Source of the DNA: Candidatus Omnitrophota bacterium
GTDB taxonomy: Bacteria; Omnitrophota; Gorgyraeia; Tantalellales; Tantalellaceae
NCBI GenBank assembly: GCA_035403965.1
Contig: DAONGE010000008.1
Coordinates: 1-59,091 of the forward strand
Reading direction: 5' to 3'
Length of the DNA stretch: 59,091 nucleotides
The notes below the pieces were generated by a model that made no database searches, was not told the origin of the DNA, and saw only the letters and a list, made by a program, of their open reading frames with translations. Numbering within the stretch: the stretch's first letter is position 1; every line of letters starts with the position of its first letter. Positions 1 through 54,989 of this stretch are shown here, piece after piece. The translations under genes and the position numbers were made by a program.

Positions 1-3
1 TTC

Positions 4-156
4 GGAGAATTTTCTGACAATTTTGGCGCCTGCGGAACTCGCCTTAACGTGACATACGTTCTTTACCAGAACGTATGTTACGTTAAAGCTCAAACAGTCC
101 TCGGCGGTCTTGTCATTCACATTCCAAGCCTTCCCAAAATAGTCATAAAATTCTCC
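4..156. repeat. MITE-like 153-bp inverted-repeat element, copy 1 (left flank cut by window edge)
   Basis: Left end GGAGAATTTTCTGACAATTTTGG (4-26) is the near-perfect reverse complement of the right end CCAAAATAGTCATAAAATTCTCC (134-156). A central 17-bp hairpin lies at 46-84 (AACGTGACATACGTTCT / loop TTACC / AGAACGTATGTTACGTT). Same length as, and roughly nine-tenths identical to, 42788-42940. Confidence 0.75.
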
Positions 157-219
157 GGGAAATCGTATTCACTCCATCCCTTCTTGTTTCGCCAAGTCAC
201 CCGAACGGAAGATCGCATA

Positions 220-344
220 TATAGCTACGGCGGGCATGTCAGATTTGCCGTTATCCGATTAAAAATAATTTACGCATCAGCGCGAGTCAAACGCCGGGAG
301 ATTAAAAATGAAAAGGCGAATCAGGCATGCTCGCCGTAGCTATA
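220..344 (+). repeat. Stem-enclosed conserved core element, copy 1 (possible structured RNA or palindrome-targeting insertion)
   Basis: 19-nt arms TATAGCTACGGCGGGCATG (220-238) and CATGCTCGCCGTAGCTATA (326-344) pair completely, with one G233-T331 wobble. An inner stem pairs GATTTGCC (242-249) with GGCGAATC (315-322). The 65-nt apical segment 250-314 recurs at 32387-32451. Confidence 0.7.
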
Positions 345-32005: not shown

Positions 32006-32082
32006 GGCGGGGTAGCTCAGCTGGTTAGAGCATACGGCTCATACCCGTAGTGTCGGTGGTTCAAGTCCACTCCCCGCTACCA
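32006..32082 (+). tRNA. Elongator tRNA-Met (anticodon CAT), CCA encoded
   Basis: Hand-folded cloverleaf. Acceptor GGCGGGG/CCCCGCT; D arm GCTC-AGCTGGTTA-GAGC. Anticodon arm TACGG-CTCATAC-CCGTA; 5-nt variable loop. T arm GGTGG-TTCAAGT-CCACT; discriminator A; CCA. There is no 1-72 mismatch and no GGG/CCC anticodon stem, so it is not an initiator. The sequence closely resembles bacterial elongator Met tRNAs, but Ile2(CAU) is not formally excluded. Confidence 0.85.
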
Positions 32083-32110
32083 CTTATCCTCGAATTTCGA
32101 ATCTCGAATT
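32075..32110 (+). repeat. Direct repeat copy 1 (tRNA 3' end plus TCGAAT-rich flank), att-like
   Basis: CGCTACCACTTATC (32075-32088) followed by CTCGAATTTCGAATCTCGAATTTC. It recurs at 32214-32250. Confidence 0.7.
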
Positions 32111-32213
32111 TCTTCCCCCAAATTGTTTATTATTAGTCCTTTAATCCGTGTGCGTATGATTTCCATAGCCCTGTATTTTGCGGAGGTCAAATGATCCCAA
32201 TCCCTCGAAATAA

Positions 32214-32250
32214 CGCTACCACTTATCTGCTATTCTCGATTTTCGATTTA
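32214..32250 (+). repeat. Direct repeat copy 2 (duplicate of the tRNA-Met 3' end), att-like
   Basis: CGCTACCACTTATC (32214-32227) is an exact 14-nt match to the tRNA 3' end. It is followed by TGCTATTCTCGATTTTCGATTTAC, which resembles the flank of copy 1. Confidence 0.7.
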
Positions 32251-32347
32251 CTCCCGGTTAGAATTTCAGTTTTTTGATCCAAATTTAATTAGGAGTTAGG
32301 GGATGGGAGTTTGGAGAGGGAACGTTTCAAACTTCAACTTCTTTAGA

Positions 32348-32490
32348 GCGTCCGGCCGGGGGATCCGAGTACTGGAACGATTTGCCGTTATCCGATTAAA
32401 AATAATTTACGCTACGGCGCGAGTCAAACACCGGGAGATCAGAAATGAAAAGGCAAATTGTGAAGCACGCAGGATCTCCCGGCCGGACGC
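32348..32490 (+). repeat. Stem-enclosed conserved core element, copy 2
   Basis: 19-nt arms GCGTCCGGCCGGGGGATCC (32348-32366) and GGATCTCCCGGCCGGACGC (32472-32490) pair completely, with one G32361-T32477 wobble. An inner stem pairs GATTTGCC (32379-32386) with GGCAAATT (32452-32459). The apical 65 nt (32387-32451) match 250-314 at all but about 7 positions. Confidence 0.7.
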
Positions 32491-32497
32491 GCAGAAA

Positions 32498-32526
32498 TTG
32501 ATTTATTCCCGGTTTGGTGTTATACT
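32498..32526 (+). promoter_or_regulatory. Candidate promoter with extended -10, immediately 3' of repeat copy 2
   Basis: TTGATT (32498-32503), 17-nt spacer, TATACT (32521-32526) preceded by TGT. The box TTCCCGGTTTGGTGTTATAC resembles 420-440 next to copy 1. Confidence 0.5.
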
Positions 32527-32581
32527 GAATCCCAAGACCATGGTTTTTACCGTTCAGTACTTATCAAGGTAAAAGAGGTGG

Positions 32582-33088
32582 TTGGTGGAAGTGACAAGAT
32601 CTCTCAAAAGATTCGGGTTACTTTCCTCACCGGAACAGGGGTTGTCCGAAAGATCCCCCCAGGATGAGGTTGTGGATATTCGTTTCCATGACCTTGAAAA
32701 TAAAATAGACGCTCTCAAAAAATGGTTCTCAGGGATAGACCTTGAGAAAGCCCGTATCGATCTCATTAAAGAACAATACGACAATAAACTAAGTTCCATA
32801 CAGGAAGAAATGTCCTCGCGCATAAGATGCATCGAAGAAACCCTTTGTAAAATTGAACATATGAATGAAAGATATCGCGAATGGGAAGAGGTCCTGCGCG
32901 CTTTTTTGGGTGAAGTCATTACCCTCATCAATGAAAAGAACGCCAGGATAGAAAAGCTAGAGAGCGAAAGATCCCAGAGAACTTTGTCGCGAGACGATGA
33001 TAGCATCTCATCCGATCTAAAAAAGATATTCCCTTCAGGTTCCTCAAGCGCGATCCTTTCCGAACTATTGGCAGAATATAAAAAATAG
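32582..33088 (+). CDS. Hypothetical coiled-coil protein
   Basis: 168-aa ORF with heptad-rich E/K/L composition. AGAGGTGG lies upstream. The start is ambiguous (TTG 32582, GTG 32585 or GTG 32591). No recognisable family. Confidence 0.45.
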   Translation: MVEVTRSLKRFGLLSSPEQGLSERSPQDEVVDIRFHDLENKIDALKKWFSGIDLEKARIDLIKEQYDNKLSSIQEEMSSRIRCIEETLCKIEHMNERYREWEEVLRAFLGEVITLINEKNARIEKLESERSQRTLSRDDDSISSDLKKIFPSGSSSAILSELLAEYKK

Positions 33089-33156
33089 TGTCATGTGGCC
33101 CTCAACCAATGTTGCGGAGTGAGCCATGTGTTAAGTAATGCCAATCTCCCGATTTT

Positions 33157-33196
33157 GGAGAATTTTCTGACAATTTTGGCACCTGCGGAACACGCC
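33157..33196. repeat. Partial copy (left arm only) of the MITE-like element
   Basis: GGAGAATTTTCTGACAATTTTGGCACCTGCGGAACACGCC matches positions 4-43 with three mismatches. The hairpin and right arm are absent. Confidence 0.7.
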
Positions 33197-33409
33197 CTCC
33201 CAGGTATATCTTCTATTCGCCTGTTCGGAAGTTCTGCGCCCTTTAGAAAAATACCCTGTTATTTTTGAACTCCAGGCGTTTGATGCTTCGCTGAAGCGTA
33301 AAATATTTTTATCTTTTGCGGGTATTTTTCTTAAGTGCTCGAACATTCCGAACAGACTAATTGTCGATAAAGCGTTTTTAAGGTTTAAGTATATTTCCGA
33401 TCTTTTCCA

Positions 33410-33441
33410 ATGGCTACGGGGGACATGTCCCCCGTAGCCAT
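33410..33441. repeat. Perfect 32-bp palindrome related to the closing stem of the core element at 220-344, but without any insert
   Basis: ATGGCTACGGGGGACATGTCCCCCGTAGCCAT. Its half-site, TGGCTACGGGGGACATG, matches TAGCTACGGCGGGCATG (222-238) at 14 of 17 positions. Confidence 0.8.
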
Positions 33442-33557
33442 GCAGGAACAACTTTGTACTCAAATATTTAACGACGAGAAACAGCACGTATGACACAAAA
33501 AGACAATCATCAGTTTTGTATTTAAGTGTGAATGATCTGTGTGCTACAAGTTGGGGA

Positions 33558-42702: not shown

Positions 42703-42787
42703 GATTATTCGCGATCCTTCAGTTTAATTGCACTGCATATTATCTGGTGAAACGAGAAGTTTTGTTGTTCAGACGATTCCCTTTTTT

Positions 42788-42940
42788 GGAGAATTTTCTG
42801 ACTATTTTGGCGCCTGCGGAACTCGCTTTAACGGGTCATTCGTTCTTTATCGGAACGTATGCCCCGTTAAAGCTCAAACAGTCCTCGGCGGCTTTGTCAT
42901 TTGTATTCCAAACCTTCCCAAAATAGTCATAAAATTCTCC
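42788..42940. repeat. MITE-like 153-bp inverted-repeat element, complete copy
   Basis: Ends GGAGAATTTTCTGACTATTTTGG (left) and CCAAAATAGTCATAAAATTCTCC (right). The central hairpin at 42830-42868 shows compensatory changes relative to copy 1. Similarity to copy 1 continues about 40 nt beyond the right end, up to TTTCGCCAGGT. Confidence 0.8.
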
Positions 42941-43080
42941 GGGGAATCGTGTTCACTCCAAAACTTCTCGTTTCGCCAGGTACTGAAAAATTACAAATTG
43001 CTTTGCGTGAAGACAATTCTATACCGTATACACATAGTGTTTAGCGGATTAGGAATGATGGCATTCGGAATATTTTTTTC

Positions 43081-48692: not shown

Positions 48693-51600
48693 ATGAAGCC
48701 CAATAAATTTATATCGGTCCTTTTGTGTTTATCGCTTATGAACGGCTCCTATATATGTTATGGGGACAATACGTTAAGTACCACAATAAATACCAGCACT
48801 GTAATTTCCGAGTCAAATACGTCTAATCAAAGTGCTGTTCAAACCGCCGTTAGCACGAAAAATGAAGTTGAGAATTTCGTCAACTCAACGGACGAGTCAA
48901 AAAGTGGACTACATATTTCGTCCGATCTTATGAATACCACGGGGAAGGTAACATTGTCCAACGGGGTTATACAATATTTTAACACAACAACTGGCCTGAT
49001 CACAAAACAGATAAATAATGATACAAATAGGACGACTCTCGCTTTTAGATATACGGGAGAGGAATTGACAACGGTGACACAAACATACAGTGCGTCAGTC
49101 CCGGCAGGCGCAGCTAAAAGCACGATCTTCAATATGAGCACATTGAAAACCGAAGAGACATATTCTGATGGATCGGTATACGCAGCTGGGTTTACGTACT
49201 CGGCGATATATGTCGATGGTACCGGAGTTGTTATCTGGCAATCGTCAGTGAGCGACAATAAAACATTATTGCGTCGTACTTTATCAGACGGAACGGTTAA
49301 ATATTATGACTCATATGGCAATGTTACTAAACAGATATTGAATGACACATATAAAACGACTTTAGCTTTTACATATACTAGTAATGTTTTGACGAAGGTT
49401 GTTAAGACGCGAAAGACAGTCGCAGTGGACGATCCCGCAATAAGTATCACATATAACTTGCTTACTATGACAGCTACGGAAATTGACGCGGATGGTTCAT
49501 ATTATCAATCGAAGTTTACATATTCGCCATTGGCCGAAAATGAAAAAGGGGTGGTGGTGTGGCAGGCCACTTTAACGGGAACCAAAATATTGGTTCAGCG
49601 CAGTCTTTCTGACGGAACGGTCCAATATTTTGATACGAATGGTAATATGACCAGACAGATATCCAATGATGCGAATAAAACTACGCTGTCCTTTACCTAT
49701 ACTAATGGTGCTTTGACTAAGATAACGCAGACCTGCGGGAAAACACCTACAAATGGGGCCGCGCTAAGTATCACCTATGATCTGGTTAAGTTAACTCTAA
49801 GTGAGAAATATGCAGATGGGTCATATTATTCTGGGAATATAACGTTTGCGGGTTTAAGTGCCGATACGACTACCGGTTTTGTGACACCGTCGATAACAAT
49901 CGTTGGTAATAAATGGCTTTCACAGCGCACGCTGGCCAATGGGACATTGCAGTATTTCAACTCAAATGGCGATATCACAAGGCAGATAACAAATGATGCG
50001 AATAAAACCACGTTATCTTTCAGCTATACGAATAATGCTCTGACGAAGATAACTAAAACTTATGGTGTTAATCCGACAGATGGTTCGGCGATCAGTATTA
50101 CATATGACCTGGTGAAGTTGATAGCAAGTGAAAGGTATTCGGATGCATCATATTATAGTTTTAAATTTACATATGCAGGACTAAATGCTGATACAACGAC
50201 AAAGGTTGTGACCCCGGGGATTACGATGACAGGTAACAAGTGGCTTAGTCAGCGTACATTATCAGATGGGACTTTGCAGTATTTTGATGCAAATGGTTAT
50301 ATAACAAAACAGGTCGCGGCGGACGCAAATAAAACGACATTGTCGTTTACATACGCTAATAATGTTTTGACGAGAGTAATAAAAACTTACGGAGTGAATC
50401 CCACGGACGGGTCGGCAATAAGGACAACATTTTATCCGGGGACTTTGACGGCGACAAAGCAATATGCAAACGGGACGACTGAAGCAATGAAATTTATATA
50501 CACGACGGTTTCAGGGGGATCGTCTGATACGGGAAATAGCGTATTGGCTAAGTGGGTTGTTGGAACTACAGAGGTTGTTACGCATATATTCGCCATTAAA
50601 ACAGACAATACAGTTCCAGTTGCGCAGGGGCAAACTCTTGCGGTTAATCAGGATACGGATCTTAATATCACGCTTGTGGGAACTGATGAGGAATCCGCGA
50701 TACTAACATATACTATCGTAACGCAGCCGCAGCATGGAACGATCGTTAGTGACGCTAACAATGCCGCGAAATTCGTTTATACTCCCGCGGCGGGGTTTAG
50801 TGGGACGGATTCGTTCACATATACCGTGAATGATGGTCTCGCGACGTCCGAAGTGGCGATAGTTAGTATCGAAATAAAAGATACCGTTCCTCCGGAAGTG
50901 ACCCTTACAAGCACGGTGTTGACGAATTCTTCGAATTATAAACTTACATATACAGTAGATGGCGTGATCTGTGAAGAGAATATAACGCTTAGCGAGGGAG
51001 TGAACACGATAATAAGGGATGCGATGGATACCGCCGGGAACAAAACCACTAAAACATGGGAAATAACCCTGGATACTGTCGCACCGGTAGTGTCATTAGT
51101 GAGCGCTTCCTTGACGAATAATCCGACGTACGCATTGCAATACAGCGTGGATGGTAAAACGGTTGAGGAATCAGTGACACTAGCTAGCGAGGGCAATAAT
51201 ACGATCACTAGAACTATAAAAGACGCGGCCGGAAATCAGACGGTGGCTACCTGGAGTATAAAATTAGATACGATTGCACCAGCAATATCCGCTGTTGCTT
51301 CGTCATCGGTGGAAGCGACCTCGGCTAATATCAGCTGGACAACCATTGAAACCGCGACTACGCAGATAGAATACGGACTTACGACATCGTATGGCACAAC
51401 TACCAATTTACTTTCGTCTTTAGTTACACAACATAGTCAGGCTATAACCGGGCTTACAGCGGTGGCCACATATCATTATAGGGTTATATCCAAGGATAGC
51501 GCTGGTAATATATCTGTATCGGATGATATGACCTTTACCACAAAAGAGGCCAGTACCACCATCCCGGTCGCTAATGCGCAGACCGTATCAATGCTGGAAG

Positions 51601-54600
51601 ATAGTTCCCAGACCATAACTTTGACCGGAACGGATCCCAGCGGAAGGCCTCTCAGTTATGTTGTAGTGAACAATCCCACTAAGGGTATTCTTACGGCTGT
51701 TGATGGGGATGCGTCAAAATATATATATACTCCGCTTAGTAATGTAGCAGGGTCAGATGAGTTTACTTTTAGAACCGTTACTTCCGACGGGGTGTATTCG
51801 GAGTTGGCCAAAGTGACATTGAAAATTTCAAAGGTTACAGATCTCCCGATAGCGTTTTCACAGATCGTTGATGTAAAAAATACCACCACAGTCATTTTAG
51901 GTGGGAGAACCCCGGATTCAGAAACGCTGACGTACACGTTGGTATCGCAGCCCGCACATGGTACTTTAACCGCGACCTCAACCGCGAATATATACATATA
52001 TACACCGGTTGCCGGGTATGTAGGGACTGATACCTTCCAGTTCAAGATCAAGGATAACACTGAATATTCCGCAGCGGCTACTGTACTATTGAGGGTCAAT
52101 GCTCCGACGGTTTTGAACACCGTGCCTACGTGTAGCGCGTACGTGTTCAATAACGCGGATAATACGAGGACTATTTCTATAGATACGAAAGACGCTGAAC
52201 AATCCGCGTCGTCAATGGTATATACCGTTACAACCGCTCCGACGAAAGGTACAGTTGTGCAGGACGCGACGGATCGTTCAAAATGGATATACACACCTGG
52301 CACCAGCTTTGATTCGGCTGGGGATACGGTCACGTTTTCAGTAAGTGACGGGATAGGGCAAGCGTCTCCGGTCATAGTCTTTGTGGGATCGGCAAATAGT
52401 TCCGTTGTAGTGTCTGATGATGGAGGACAGATCGATTTTTCAAAGTTCACGGCAGGGACCCAGTTCGTTATTTCCGGAACAGTTGGGTCAAATTGCGGGA
52501 CATTCACGTCGGTAGACGGCTCAACCTCAAAATATTATTTTACGCCGTCATGGAGTATCTATTGGGAGGGAATGACGGACAGAACGGTTACAATAAAATA
52601 TACGTCTGATGTGGATCCGGCAACGGTTCATTCTATAGATCTTAGGATAAATTATATCGATGATCCCGCTGTGGTCTCGCCGGTTAAAGATATGGTATGG
52701 ACTACTGGGGTGCCGTTGAACTTCGGGGTGTTCGCTACAGATCTTGATACGGCGAACGTGGGGATATATGTTACTGGGACGACTTCAAGCGGTTCCGATA
52801 TATCTTCGCAGTTAAATTGGTCTGATTTTTACGCAAGTCCTACGACTAACATATATCAACAGGAGATCTGGACCCCGACAAAAACGGGGACATATATATT
52901 GACCGTGCATTCCGGGGATAGTTCCCAGACTTTTAACGTTATAGTGAAAAGTCTGGCCACTACTCAAACAACGGTTCCTGTTTTTACGGCGCCTTCCGAT
53001 GTTCTAGTTTATGGCAGCGGTAATCATCAGAGAAAATTGGTGACAAACATATCAGCGGTTGACGAAGGCGGAAAAGACGTTGTTGTGTCTATGACGTCAG
53101 TTAAGAAAGACGGCGTGGATTATACCGCATCTATAACCGATTATTATTATGACAATCTTACAGGAGAGTTTTTCTGGTATCCCGGAGTTGACGAAGAATT
53201 AGGTAAATATGAATTTACGTTCACCGCGATAGACGCCGATGGACATAAATCAACAAAGACGATAAACATGACGGTAACGTTACCGCCTGTTGTGACAGGA
53301 ACTAGCGAGTTTACGGCTTTTATTAAAGCACATGAGAACGAAATACACGGTTACTCGGATATCGTATACCGTAACGCGGATGGATGGCATGCCAGTGTGA
53401 ATGCTTCTTATTCTGAGCAAATAGATGTCGGCGCAAGTGCTTCATATGGTTTGTGCGTGTGTGACGAGGGTGATGATGTTATATTCACAAATTCATCGAC
53501 TGCGTATACGGTCGCCGGTGGAGATAATGTTACTAAAGCGATGCTTAACAATAGTGGGAAGCTGATGACCAGCTTGTATAACGCATTTGTGAGTAAAGAT
53601 GGTTGTTCCATGGCGTTTTCCCCTGGGCATGTAAGCGACGGGAGAAGAGACGCGGAATTTAACATCGGAAAAGTTGCTTATGTGTATTCATCGATGGGGT
53701 CTTCCCATAGCGAAGCTGCCGCGGTAGAAGCTTATATGAAGACCGCAGGTGCTTTCAAAAAAGAGGTGTATGATTATCTTAAAGAGAACGGTCTTTTGTT
53801 GGCGACAATAGTGTATTTAGACCATTGGACGCGCATGAATGCGGATCCGGAAAAATATCTTTCGCGGGAATCATATCCCAGCTTTAACGTGAGTGCCGAA
53901 ATTGATGCGATGGCTATGGTCAAAGCCGCGTATGCGATGACGCTCGATACGATACCGTCTTTGCCGCAGTTGAAAATGGTCAGTCAGCCTGAGACCGGGA
54001 CTTTAGGTGTGGATTATTTTGATTCAGGTACTCGGTCAGTTCTGTATGAAACCCCGTTGTCTATCGCTACTATCTATTATGAACATACTGCGACAAAAGT
54101 GTTCGAACTTGATGCATCATCAAGTATATCAGCGGCAGGAACGAACATTGTTGAGTATAACTGGGTGGTCGCTCAAGGGGACGCTTCGAAAGTGCGTATT
54201 ATCAAATTGAATGAATCCGGATCGAAAGTTCGTATTGAGATCGATTATAGTGGATCGACTACGGTCGCTAGCAGTGGCTATGGCGATGATATCATATCGA
54301 ACCTGACGGCGATCGCATTGTATACCAAAACCGATAAGGGCGTGTATTCCATCCCAGCGTATTTTTCGTCATATACCATACCAAACGAACAGAGGACATA
54401 TGATACTAATGGAAAGATCCTTGGAATAACGTACACAACGGCGGAATGTCCGCGCGGAGTCGGATTTCAAAAAAGCTGGACAAAGGATGTGTACAATTAT
54501 GACGATAACGGTAATCTGCTGGGATGGACAAGGTATTACAAAGGGGTTAAGGAGTATTATGGTGCTAACGGAATGGTTATCGTAAGTAAGGATTCACTCG

Positions 54601-54989
54601 GCCGTTTAGTCACGGGAAACGCTGTTACTTACAAGATAGTATCCTCCGTTATGACCCCGACTGTCGTCACCAGTATTTTGTATAAGTATACTTATGCTTC
54701 TGATACGGATTTTACCGGCAGGCTCAGCGAGTTTCAGTATGATTGTGTAGGTACTTCTGGTACTTCATATTCGGTGCAGAATATTACCGTGTATGATGCG
54801 GATGGGACACTGACGGAAATATGGCAGTATATCGGAGGAACGTTAAAAAGCAAGATCAAAGTGACAAGTACTGCCACAAATTTTTATAATGCATCAGGAA
54901 CGCTTCTTAGTACGGCTACCGCCGCGGGATATCTAGTCCCAAATTTTTATAACATTATGCAATGGTGGTTGACGTTGATGAAACTTTAA
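48693..54989 (+). CDS. Giant (2098 aa) secreted repeat protein: YD-like tandem repeats, cadherin/VCBS-like and FN3-like beta-sandwich modules, unassigned globular region, C-terminal YD-like repeats
   Basis: AAGGAGG RBS; signal peptide MKPNKFISVLLCLSLMNGSYICYG. Five repeats of 108-109 aa. Several modules carry the signature Y(T/I)YTP..G..G.D.FT(Y/F). The FN3-like segment reads ANISWTT...IEYGLTTSYG...YHYRV. C-terminal YD-like hairpins include YDTNGKILGITY and YNYDDNGNLLGWTRYY. Confidence 0.85.
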   Translation: MKPNKFISVLLCLSLMNGSYICYGDNTLSTTINTSTVISESNTSNQSAVQTAVSTKNEVENFVNSTDESKSGLHISSDLMNTTGKVTLSNGVIQYFNTTTGLITKQINNDTNRTTLAFRYTGEELTTVTQTYSASVPAGAAKSTIFNMSTLKTEETYSDGSVYAAGFTYSAIYVDGTGVVIWQSSVSDNKTLLRRTLSDGTVKYYDSYGNVTKQILNDTYKTTLAFTYTSNVLTKVVKTRKTVAVDDPAISITYNLLTMTATEIDADGSYYQSKFTYSPLAENEKGVVVWQATLTGTKILVQRSLSDGTVQYFDTNGNMTRQISNDANKTTLSFTYTNGALTKITQTCGKTPTNGAALSITYDLVKLTLSEKYADGSYYSGNITFAGLSADTTTGFVTPSITIVGNKWLSQRTLANGTLQYFNSNGDITRQITNDANKTTLSFSYTNNALTKITKTYGVNPTDGSAISITYDLVKLIASERYSDASYYSFKFTYAGLNADTTTKVVTPGITMTGNKWLSQRTLSDGTLQYFDANGYITKQVAADANKTTLSFTYANNVLTRVIKTYGVNPTDGSAIRTTFYPGTLTATKQYANGTTEAMKFIYTTVSGGSSDTGNSVLAKWVVGTTEVVTHIFAIKTDNTVPVAQGQTLAVNQDTDLNITLVGTDEESAILTYTIVTQPQHGTIVSDANNAAKFVYTPAAGFSGTDSFTYTVNDGLATSEVAIVSIEIKDTVPPEVTLTSTVLTNSSNYKLTYTVDGVICEENITLSEGVNTIIRDAMDTAGNKTTKTWEITLDTVAPVVSLVSASLTNNPTYALQYSVDGKTVEESVTLASEGNNTITRTIKDAAGNQTVATWSIKLDTIAPAISAVASSSVEATSANISWTTIETATTQIEYGLTTSYGTTTNLLSSLVTQHSQAITGLTAVATYHYRVISKDSAGNISVSDDMTFTTKEASTTIPVANAQTVSMLEDSSQTITLTGTDPSGRPLSYVVVNNPTKGILTAVDGDASKYIYTPLSNVAGSDEFTFRTVTSDGVYSELAKVTLKISKVTDLPIAFSQIVDVKNTTTVILGGRTPDSETLTYTLVSQPAHGTLTATSTANIYIYTPVAGYVGTDTFQFKIKDNTEYSAAATVLLRVNAPTVLNTVPTCSAYVFNNADNTRTISIDTKDAEQSASSMVYTVTTAPTKGTVVQDATDRSKWIYTPGTSFDSAGDTVTFSVSDGIGQASPVIVFVGSANSSVVVSDDGGQIDFSKFTAGTQFVISGTVGSNCGTFTSVDGSTSKYYFTPSWSIYWEGMTDRTVTIKYTSDVDPATVHSIDLRINYIDDPAVVSPVKDMVWTTGVPLNFGVFATDLDTANVGIYVTGTTSSGSDISSQLNWSDFYASPTTNIYQQEIWTPTKTGTYILTVHSGDSSQTFNVIVKSLATTQTTVPVFTAPSDVLVYGSGNHQRKLVTNISAVDEGGKDVVVSMTSVKKDGVDYTASITDYYYDNLTGEFFWYPGVDEELGKYEFTFTAIDADGHKSTKTINMTVTLPPVVTGTSEFTAFIKAHENEIHGYSDIVYRNADGWHASVNASYSEQIDVGASASYGLCVCDEGDDVIFTNSSTAYTVAGGDNVTKAMLNNSGKLMTSLYNAFVSKDGCSMAFSPGHVSDGRRDAEFNIGKVAYVYSSMGSSHSEAAAVEAYMKTAGAFKKEVYDYLKENGLLLATIVYLDHWTRMNADPEKYLSRESYPSFNVSAEIDAMAMVKAAYAMTLDTIPSLPQLKMVSQPETGTLGVDYFDSGTRSVLYETPLSIATIYYEHTATKVFELDASSSISAAGTNIVEYNWVVAQGDASKVRIIKLNESGSKVRIEIDYSGSTTVASSGYGDDIISNLTAIALYTKTDKGVYSIPAYFSSYTIPNEQRTYDTNGKILGITYTTAECPRGVGFQKSWTKDVYNYDDNGNLLGWTRYYKGVKEYYGANGMVIVSKDSLGRLVTGNAVTYKIVSSVMTPTVVTSILYKYTYASDTDFTGRLSEFQYDCVGTSGTSYSVQNITVYDADGTLTEIWQYIGGTLKSKIKVTSTATNFYNASGTLLSTATAAGYLVPNFYNIMQWWLTLMKL
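48954..50590 (+). repeat. Five in-frame tandem repeats of 324-327 nt inside the giant gene
   Basis: Units start at 48954, 49281, 49605, 49932 and 50259, each beginning L(S/A)(D/N)G(T/V)(V/L)(Q/K)Y(F/Y)(D/N)..G.(I/V/M)T(K/R)Q. The middle units are the most similar to each other. Confidence 0.85.

Follow-up and report, generated by a model that had tools for sequence, protein, structure and literature searches.

In this work, we describe a family of hairpin-forming repeats in a 59,091-nt stretch of DNA (the window) from a Candidatus Omnitrophota bacterium, contig DAONGE010000008.1 of assembly GCA_035403965.1. Two loci, 220-344 (copy 1) and 32348-32490 (copy 2), which a previous sequence-only reading had singled out as look-alike conserved hairpins, are members of a small, non-coding, dispersed family of hairpin repeats, 125 or 141-147 nt in length, of an Omnitrophota lineage. 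The explanation that we favour, with a probability of about 0.5, is that the family represents lineage-specific, non-autonomous (selfish) hairpin repeat DNA, similar in kind to miniature inverted-repeat transposable elements (MITEs), to REPINs, which are hairpins built of repetitive extragenic palindromes (REPs), or to bacterial interspersed mosaic elements (BIMEs), maintained via a folded single strand and homogenised by recombination between the copies. According to this explanation, the elements would be propagated or maintained through the folded, single-stranded + strand, which an enzyme encoded elsewhere in the genome would recognise, and the uniformity of the core seems to be owed in large part to recombination or gene conversion among copies. 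The hairpin repeat family is real, new and lineage-specific, and it is less exceptional than its first two copies suggested.

An exact 22-mer of the core was used to retrieve metagenome contig segments from the Joint Genome Institute (JGI) collection, which yielded 16 loci (retrieved sequences are denoted below by L numbers and copies by E numbers). Approximately 274 kb, comprising the window and related metagenome contigs, were searched with an nhmmer profile of the core and, after that, with a covariance model for which ten long copies served as input. Both searches together gave 22 distinct copies. Three of the copies lie in the window: besides the two loci noticed earlier, there is a third copy on the minus strand at 33217-33359, and a core-less palindrome at 33410-33441. 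All the copies lie between genes. Several contigs, including the Logan contig of the window locus, terminate inside copies, as happens when assemblers meet repeats. The window itself is JGI contig Ga0116247_10000322.

The copies fall into about six subfamilies, which have in common an A-rich core of about 62 nt and carry different nested stems. On the + strand, the order from outside to inside is an outer stem (P1, 10-20 bp), an irregular segment present in the long forms, an inner stem (P2) and the core. Type I copies are all exactly 125 nt long and have no internal-loop segment; the long forms, of four stem types, measure 141-147 nt. Long forms contain a conserved 2x3 purine internal loop, 5' C-GA-G opposite 3' C-GCA-G, and a 2+2-bp helix, which covaries (GU:AC vs GC:GC; CU:AG vs UU:AA vs CC:GG) and is divided by one consistently unpaired position (A.C, A.G, C.C or A.A). 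A kink-turn reading of the GA/GCA loop was set aside on inspection, since it would break the 4-bp GUUC/GAAC helix of type III. P2 is swapped wholesale among subfamilies (GAUUUGCC/GGCAAAUC, CAAGUUGCC/GGCAACUUG, AGAAAAGCCC/GGGCUUUUCU, AGAAAAAUACCC/GGGUAUUUUUCU and CAAUUC/GAAUUG). The core consensus is GAUWAAAAWWAWUUACGC-N4-GCG..CAAACGCCKGGAGWUYARAAAURA; many of its positions are invariant (GA.UA.AA.UA..UUACGC-N4-GCG...C.AAC.CC.GGAG...A.AAAU.A.A.G), and the 4-nt stretch between CGC and GCG is hypervariable.

In the window, copy 1 is of type I, copy 2 of type II and copy 3 of type III. The resemblance of copies 1 and 2 was confirmed by pattern matching, by their 19-bp inverted repeats and by an 80-nt block common to both (242-321 vs 32379-32458), which is 91% identical, with 7 differences; three of the four loop bases differ (ATCA vs TACG), not all four as was assumed. 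The two core halves match only at 250-275/32387-32412 and 280-317/32417-32454, where 0 matches would be expected by chance. The stems of both copies are similar in geometry, as had been noticed, yet not identical: copy 1 has 3 nt between its outer and inner stems, whereas copy 2 has 12 nt. Their outer stems do differ in sequence, because the copies belong to different subfamilies, but neither is a free-standing novelty: the type I stem recurs in L009, L010, L012 and L007 (four further copies, each 125 nt), and the type II stem in L013, L014, L017 and L003. Each outer stem has one non-Watson-Crick pair, G233-T331 in copy 1 and G32361-T32477 in copy 2, the 6th from the loop in both cases; this coincidence of position, pointed out before, is correct for the two copies but does not extend to the family. 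A G-C pair occupies this position in the other type I copies, and type II copies vary at pair 5 or 6 (G-T, G-A or a shifted G-T).

The stems are maintained as paired structures. In the ten long copies, standard pairs make up 95.7% of cells, compared with 28-45% when the partners are slid, and two-sided changes are found in 12 of the 21 pairs. Outer stems were counted by hand-curated pairing; the MAFFT alignment allowed no single outer-stem consensus structure, because type III carries a bulged T. The hand-curated helices comprise 448 Watson-Crick, 16 G-T, 3 A-C and 11 other pairs. Within subfamilies, the outer stems also carry private compensated changes (GCAACGG/CCGTTGC, GGTGGG/CCCACC, CTGGGATGG/CCATCCTAG). 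The earlier description of a structured hairpin, whose stems stay paired despite changes on both sides and whose unpaired parts are conserved, is thus upheld by these counts. Such helix-supporting covariation (12/21 pairs, 95.7% of cells) is what is looked for in structured non-coding RNA; it does not discriminate between the readings considered here, because DNA hairpins and inverted repeats give the same signal. The CGC/GCG mini-hairpin of the core is invariant among the ten long copies and, as it never varies, offers no covariation evidence either way.

Copies 1 and 2 fold far better than shuffled controls (z = -7.8 and -7.9, respectively), and their + strands fold more stably than the minus strands (-55.6 vs -46.2 and -67.5 vs -63.0 kcal/mol). 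The sequence-only reading took the wobble pairs to be informative of the strand. G-T cells do outnumber A-C cells, 16 vs 3, or roughly 12 vs 3 independent events after allowing for shared ancestry, a bias which is partly sensitive to how the helices are delimited and to the conserved A.C position, excluded from the count. This modest + strand bias lends weak support to a folded + strand form, and it fits RNA or single-stranded DNA. The coordinates of the copies, their parts and the associated features of the window are collected in Table 1.

Table 1. Copies of the hairpin repeat, their parts and associated repeats in the window
Feature	Position	Strand	Remarks
Copy 1, short form (type I)	220-344	+	125 nt; covariance-model match 212-351, E=1e-20
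Copy 1, outer stem	220-238/326-344	+	19-nt inverted repeats
Copy 1, spacers	239-241 and 323-325	+	3 nt each
Copy 1, inner stem	242-249/315-322	+	
Copy 1, core	250-314	+	
Copy 2, long form (type II)	32348-32490	+	143 nt; covariance-model match 32347-32490, 145 bits, E=3e-34
Copy 2, outer stem	32348-32366/32472-32490	+	19 nt per arm, 95% complementary
Copy 2, 5' internal-loop module	32367-32378	+	GAGTACTGGAAC
Copy 2, 3' internal-loop module	32460-32471	+	GTGAAGCACGCA
Copy 2, inner stem	32377-32386/32452-32461	+	
Copy 2, core	32387-32451	+	
Copy 3, long form (type III)	33217-33359	-	covariance-model match 33216-33360, 145.6 bits, E=3e-34
Copy 3, outer stem	33356-33346 + 33344-33341, partner 33234-33219	-	
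Copy 3, inner stem	33331-33320/33256-33245	-	AGAAAAATACCC/GGGTATTTTTCT
Copy 3, core	33319-33257	-	
Core-less perfect palindrome	33410-33441		ATGGCTACGGGGGACATGTCCCCCGTAGCCAT, 32 nt; 50 nt from copy 3
MITE A, second foldback repeat	1-197	+	nested inverted repeats CTTGGCGAAACGAGAAG...CTTCTCGTTTCGCCAAG; directly upstream of copy 1

Around one third of the copies are truncated, interrupted or hybrid. E19 (type I on the left, type IV on the right) and E21 (type III on the left, type I on the right) are hybrids whose stems are unable to pair, E13 is without its left arm, and solo arms are present elsewhere. Both hybrids switch subfamily inside ..ACGCC(G/T)GG|AG.. of the core, and a small scar marks the junction in each. 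An unrelated insertion sequence (IS) interrupts E18 and E20. An unrelated IS with a terminal inverted repeat of approximately TGTTATGYAAAGTGTCAAGCTTCC was noticed in type IV copies (L012:4768-4862, L013:1-105 and L006:10530-10623), inserted in their 5' internal loop at GAG^CATTG, and contigs break within it. In E08 the internal loop has turned into a perfect duplex through at least 5 concerted changes, which is what templated correction of a quasipalindrome produces at the DNA level.

Differences between strains are likewise confined to cores. A metagenome-assembled genome (MAG) of the same species, GCA_035352475.1 (L037), matches the window at 99.87% identity across 4,573 nt, and all 6 differences lie at 33269-33288, in the core of copy 3, where type III GCGAAGCATCAAACGCCTGGAGTTC is replaced by a type I/II-like GCGCGAGTCAAACGCCGGGAGATC; judging by the sequence, this looks like a gene-conversion-like tract from a paralogous copy. 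The single difference between L004 and the window in 1,730 nt, at position 295, also falls within a core. E01 and E03 are duplicated composite loci; they agree completely over 105 internal nt and to 73-84% in the flanks, a pattern that fits homogenisation of the core and would also suit selection. Taken together, the strain differences and the switch points of the hybrids indicate that the core is recombinationally active, and inter-copy exchange can explain a uniform centre between diverged stems without strong purifying selection.

All copies lie among unrelated housekeeping genes (for instance mfd/surA, tRNA-Met, terC, cheW, a lipase gene, a radical SAM gene), with mixed orientation in relation to their neighbours (about 7 the same, about 6 opposite), and in L012/L015 four copies are found within 5 kb. 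No sequence outside the element is conserved between subfamilies, hence there is no common promoter, and the window genes downstream of the elements have their own promoter-like sites past the element. Copy 1 belongs to a composite repeat cluster, as MITE A and a 23-nt linker precede most type I copies, whose left flanks are 89-94% identical. MITE A is about 240 nt long and occurs in the window at 1-197 (extending upstream in L030, ~930-1183), at 42741-42982 and as a fragment at 33147-33195; segments 1-197 and 42785-42981 are 88% identical, and its central 19-22-bp hairpin (41-62/68-89) includes a G-T pair.

Further repeats were observed in the vicinity of the copies. A REP-like hairpin, ATAGATTCCCGCTAAATGCGTGCGGGAATGACA, adjoins many of them (L017:5443-5475, L009:3121-3153, L012:4530-4562, L008:3699-3731 and others) and was not found in the window; its variants covary (ATCCCCGA/TCGGGGAT, ATGCCCGA/TCGGGCAT). 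A 20-nt motif, TTCCCGG(G)TTTGGTRTTAYAC, is located downstream of copies 1 and 2 (421-440 and 32506-32525; 2 matches vs 0.02 expected), and the match beside copy 2 overlaps with a promoter-like site of the downstream gene that has a TG-extended -10 (TTGATT-17-TATACT). The 3' end of tRNA-Met (CGCTACCACTTATC..., 32075-32116) is duplicated 139 nt downstream, at 32214-32255, with 76% identity, a duplication that an element integrated at the tRNA gene may have left as a scar; repeated tRNA 3' ends were also seen in the relative L028. Apart from these, the region 49260-50375, within the open reading frame (ORF) 48693-54989, consists of four tandem repeats of about 325 nt (64-70% identical) in a protein of ~2,000 aa with Cadherin_5/Big_9 domains.

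The best MnmA homologues of the window organism are 66-68% identical and come from Omnitrophota/Omnitrophica. At the syntenic mnmA-tRNA-Met loci of three Omnitrophota relatives with this level of identity no element is present, and ordinary terminator hairpins are located there. Scanning of GTDB representative genomes with an exact pattern gave 0 matches and with a degenerate pattern 5, none of which was accepted: L020 and L023 are apparent coding sequence, and the other three, from GC-rich unrelated taxa (Alphaproteobacteria, Mesorhizobium, Streptomyces), were taken as chance matches with their sequences unread. Viral contigs, plasmids and phages contained no matching sequence, and the literature on Omnitrophota repeats held nothing relevant.

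Several observations speak against selfish hairpin DNA. There is no unambiguous target-site duplication: the junctions carry a duplicated CATG in type I and a duplicated GATC in type II, but as both are palindromes a duplication is indistinguishable from stem pairing, and the junctions of types III-V show no direct repeat. A conserved centre with variable ends is the reverse of what is seen in MITEs and REPINs. The asymmetric internal loop, the unpaired core, the covarying stems and the + strand excess of G-T are equally expected of a functional RNA. No transposase, RAYT, recombinase or integrase was found in the Pfam-annotated window; a tblastn search of the ~270 kb examined, with approximate probe sequences for the TnpA of IS608 and the RayT of E. 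coli, gave nothing, which is a weak negative, and a core lies beside a transposase ORF in none of the 16 metagenome loci (~270 kb of the organism). Presence/absence polymorphism at a single locus was not seen between samples, the populations of which are nearly clonal.

The first of the alternatives is a structured RNA family, in which the + strand would be transcribed, either as a small RNA or within neighbouring transcripts, and the long irregular hairpin, with its purine internal loop and A-rich apex, would function as RNA: it might bind a protein, terminate transcription or serve as an RNase III or stability element. We consider it unlikely, although the conservation of loops and core between covarying stems, the prevalence of G-T over A-C and the greater stability of the + strand folds are all what it predicts. 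The T-run that follows the 3' arm in several type II copies resembles a terminator. No promoter is conserved upstream of the outer stem, the flanks are unrelated between subfamilies, and the downstream genes of the window have promoter-like sites of their own past the element. Read-through transcripts would often carry the element in antisense, given its mixed orientation, and many copies are broken or hybrid. The 105 nt retained intact between E01 and E03 within diverged flanks could be read as constraint on an RNA; the conversion-like variation in the cores of near-clonal strains suits concerted evolution over purifying selection. Neither does the invariant CGC/GCG mini-hairpin bring covariation support. 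Rfam returned only tRNA-Met for the whole window at gathering score, and nothing overlapping the elements in the region 32300-33480 at E<=10, in agreement with the previous failure to place the hairpins in a known RNA family. Hence, of the functional RNA suggested by the sequence-only reading, structure and covariation stand, whereas a conserved outside promoter or terminator is lacking, the orientation is mixed and about a third of the copies are defective.

Similarly doubtful, to our judgement, is the proposal that only a unit of ~81-87 nt, composed of the inner stem and core, is mobile and inserts at the centres of existing palindromes such as REP-like hairpins or terminator stems. On this view, the outer stems would represent target DNA that was complementary before the insertion. 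The outer stem of copy 1 has a core-less, palindromic paralogue at 33410-33441, in which a single central CATG takes the place of the CATG-[87 nt]-CATG of type I and which may be a candidate empty site or an excision product: were the unit to insert there with a 4-bp duplication, arms of exactly 15+4 = 19 bp would result, but a deletion could equally have produced the palindrome. A unit of ~86-87 nt (P2, core and 3 nt per side) indeed resides in three unrelated palindromic contexts, those of types I, VI and II, and in E08 it is housed by a 16-bp palindrome unlike that of the other types. In type II copies, the outer part of the stem diverges about five times faster than the interior and is still paired, it is flanked by A- and T-runs as an intrinsic terminator would be, and insertion sequences targeting REP hairpins are documented (PMC1525189, PMC12288879). 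On the other hand, the type I and type II outer stems are themselves repeat families with homologous flanks, and therefore they travel with the element or with larger composites. The junctions of types III-V are non-palindromic (GTTC/GAAC, ATCC/GGAT) and represent inverted repeats, not duplications, and an empty palindrome of types II-V was not found in ~270 kb.

Equally tentative, and against the odds in our estimate, is the idea that the 62-nt apex, the GA/GCA loop and the always-mismatched position together form a recognition module on the folded + strand, with the surrounding stems at liberty to vary, which would define either a new class of mobile elements recognised by the hairpin apex or a new class of multi-copy structured RNA restricted to one Omnitrophota lineage. 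In the former version, the elements would be moved by a single-strand-specific recombinase, which may cut near ..ACGCCGG|GAG.., the site in the core where both hybrids switch.

A peptide-coding role was ruled out. The sequence-only reading had noted a GGGAG-N8-ATG start with the codons for MKR in the core; this ATG is ATA in types III-V and in E12/E13, and the ORFs that begin from it diverge at once, which is incompatible with a coding sequence or a leader peptide. The minus-strand TTGACT-17-TATTTT noted at the same time matches the promoter consensus at 9 of 12 positions only; its hexamers are kept in types I-III, with a spacer of 18 nt in type III, and degraded in types IV and V (TTCGCC..TACTTT and TTGCCT..TATTTC, respectively), and in copy 2 it would point at the tRNA gene on the + strand. 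In the core, partial matches only were noticed on inspection to an integration host factor (IHF) site or a DnaA box. A double-stranded DNA site between inverted repeats, being a portable promoter or a platform for a nucleoid-associated protein in the manner of the IHF-binding BIME-1 of E. coli, is the least probable of the readings, and very improbable in itself: the promoter-like matches of copies 1 and 2, their retention in type III and an A/T-rich conserved centre between inverted repeats speak for it, but the decay of the hexamers, the orientation towards the tRNA gene, the inconsistent genes downstream on the minus strand, a core without a good IHF consensus (by inspection), and the paired arms and the G-T bias, which it leaves unexplained, speak against it.

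To our knowledge, the mobile DNA of Omnitrophota, which are uncultured, is essentially undescribed. For annotation, the elements matter since they fragment assemblies, create spurious ORFs, for instance those of 89-96 aa across copies 1 and 2, and are easily mistaken for a novel RNA gene. The family inverts the usual MITE/REPIN pattern, with a conserved centre and interchangeable stems, and shows concerted evolution through conversion tracts and hybrids of the core. Should the internal loop and the core indeed form a module that an enzyme or RNA-binding protein recognises, its study would benefit from the compact set of natural stem variants that the family provides.

Among known systems, attC sites and the ends of IS200/IS605 elements were put forward by the sequence-only reading as examples of a hairpin recognised by a protein, and this comes nearer to selfish hairpin DNA than an RNA gene does, although the copies have the defining features of neither. 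Both are single-strand hairpins recognised by structure, mismatches and bulges, with strand specificity. The attC sites have conserved outer R/L boxes (RYYYAAC/GTTRRRY) and a variable centre, and they form cassette arrays beside intI; the Omnitrophota copies are dispersed in both orientations, and have no conserved basal boxes, and no integrase is annotated in the window. The hairpins at IS200/IS605 ends are short and asymmetric and lack terminal inverted repeats, a description that does not fit the Omnitrophota family.

MITEs have conserved, transposase-bound terminal inverted repeats and clear target-site duplications. With those of the Correia/NEMIS, ERIC and RUP kind, the family shares a length of ~100-150 nt, inverted repeats, the absence of an ORF, an intergenic location, length subtypes and promoter- or terminator-like features (PMC3184786). 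The 22 copies, 125-147 nt in length, are below the 300 bp usual for MITEs (<300 bp), multi-copy, intergenic and devoid of a conserved ORF; terminal inverted repeats common to all copies are missing, as their sequence varies by subfamily and, in the outer part, by copy. The family thus differs from MITEs in having no conserved ends, and no parent IS was found in ~270 kb.

BIME-1 of E. coli (RIB/RIP) binds IHF, consists of two inverted units around a conserved central motif, and its modules combine. Similarly, the Omnitrophota repeats are modular and intergenic, with inverted units that flank a conserved centre. They differ in having no recognisable IHF consensus in the core and single arms instead of complete palindromic units, as well as in the phylum, with no sequence similarity to the repeats of E. 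coli. REP units are short palindromes with a GTAG-type head, and the arms of the Omnitrophota family are not such self-palindromic REPs. In REPINs the ends (REPs) are conserved and the spacer least so; the Omnitrophota family shows the opposite, with a conserved centre and ends that differ from one subfamily to another. BIMEs are known as mosaic intergenic repeats (PMC2817692, PMC3333891), and REPINs as intergenic hairpins of ~100 nt, which are thought to move as single strands via RAYT, a Y1 (HUH) transposase (PMC3116915; PMC3333891), and in which compensatory changes between the hairpin arms are frequent, a precedent for such changes in mobile DNA (PMC3116915). It is REPINs that the family resembles in being short, non-coding, intergenic and multi-copy, in the long hairpin predicted in single-stranded DNA or mRNA, and in the occurrence of clusters next to defunct singlets (PMC3116915; PMC3333891).

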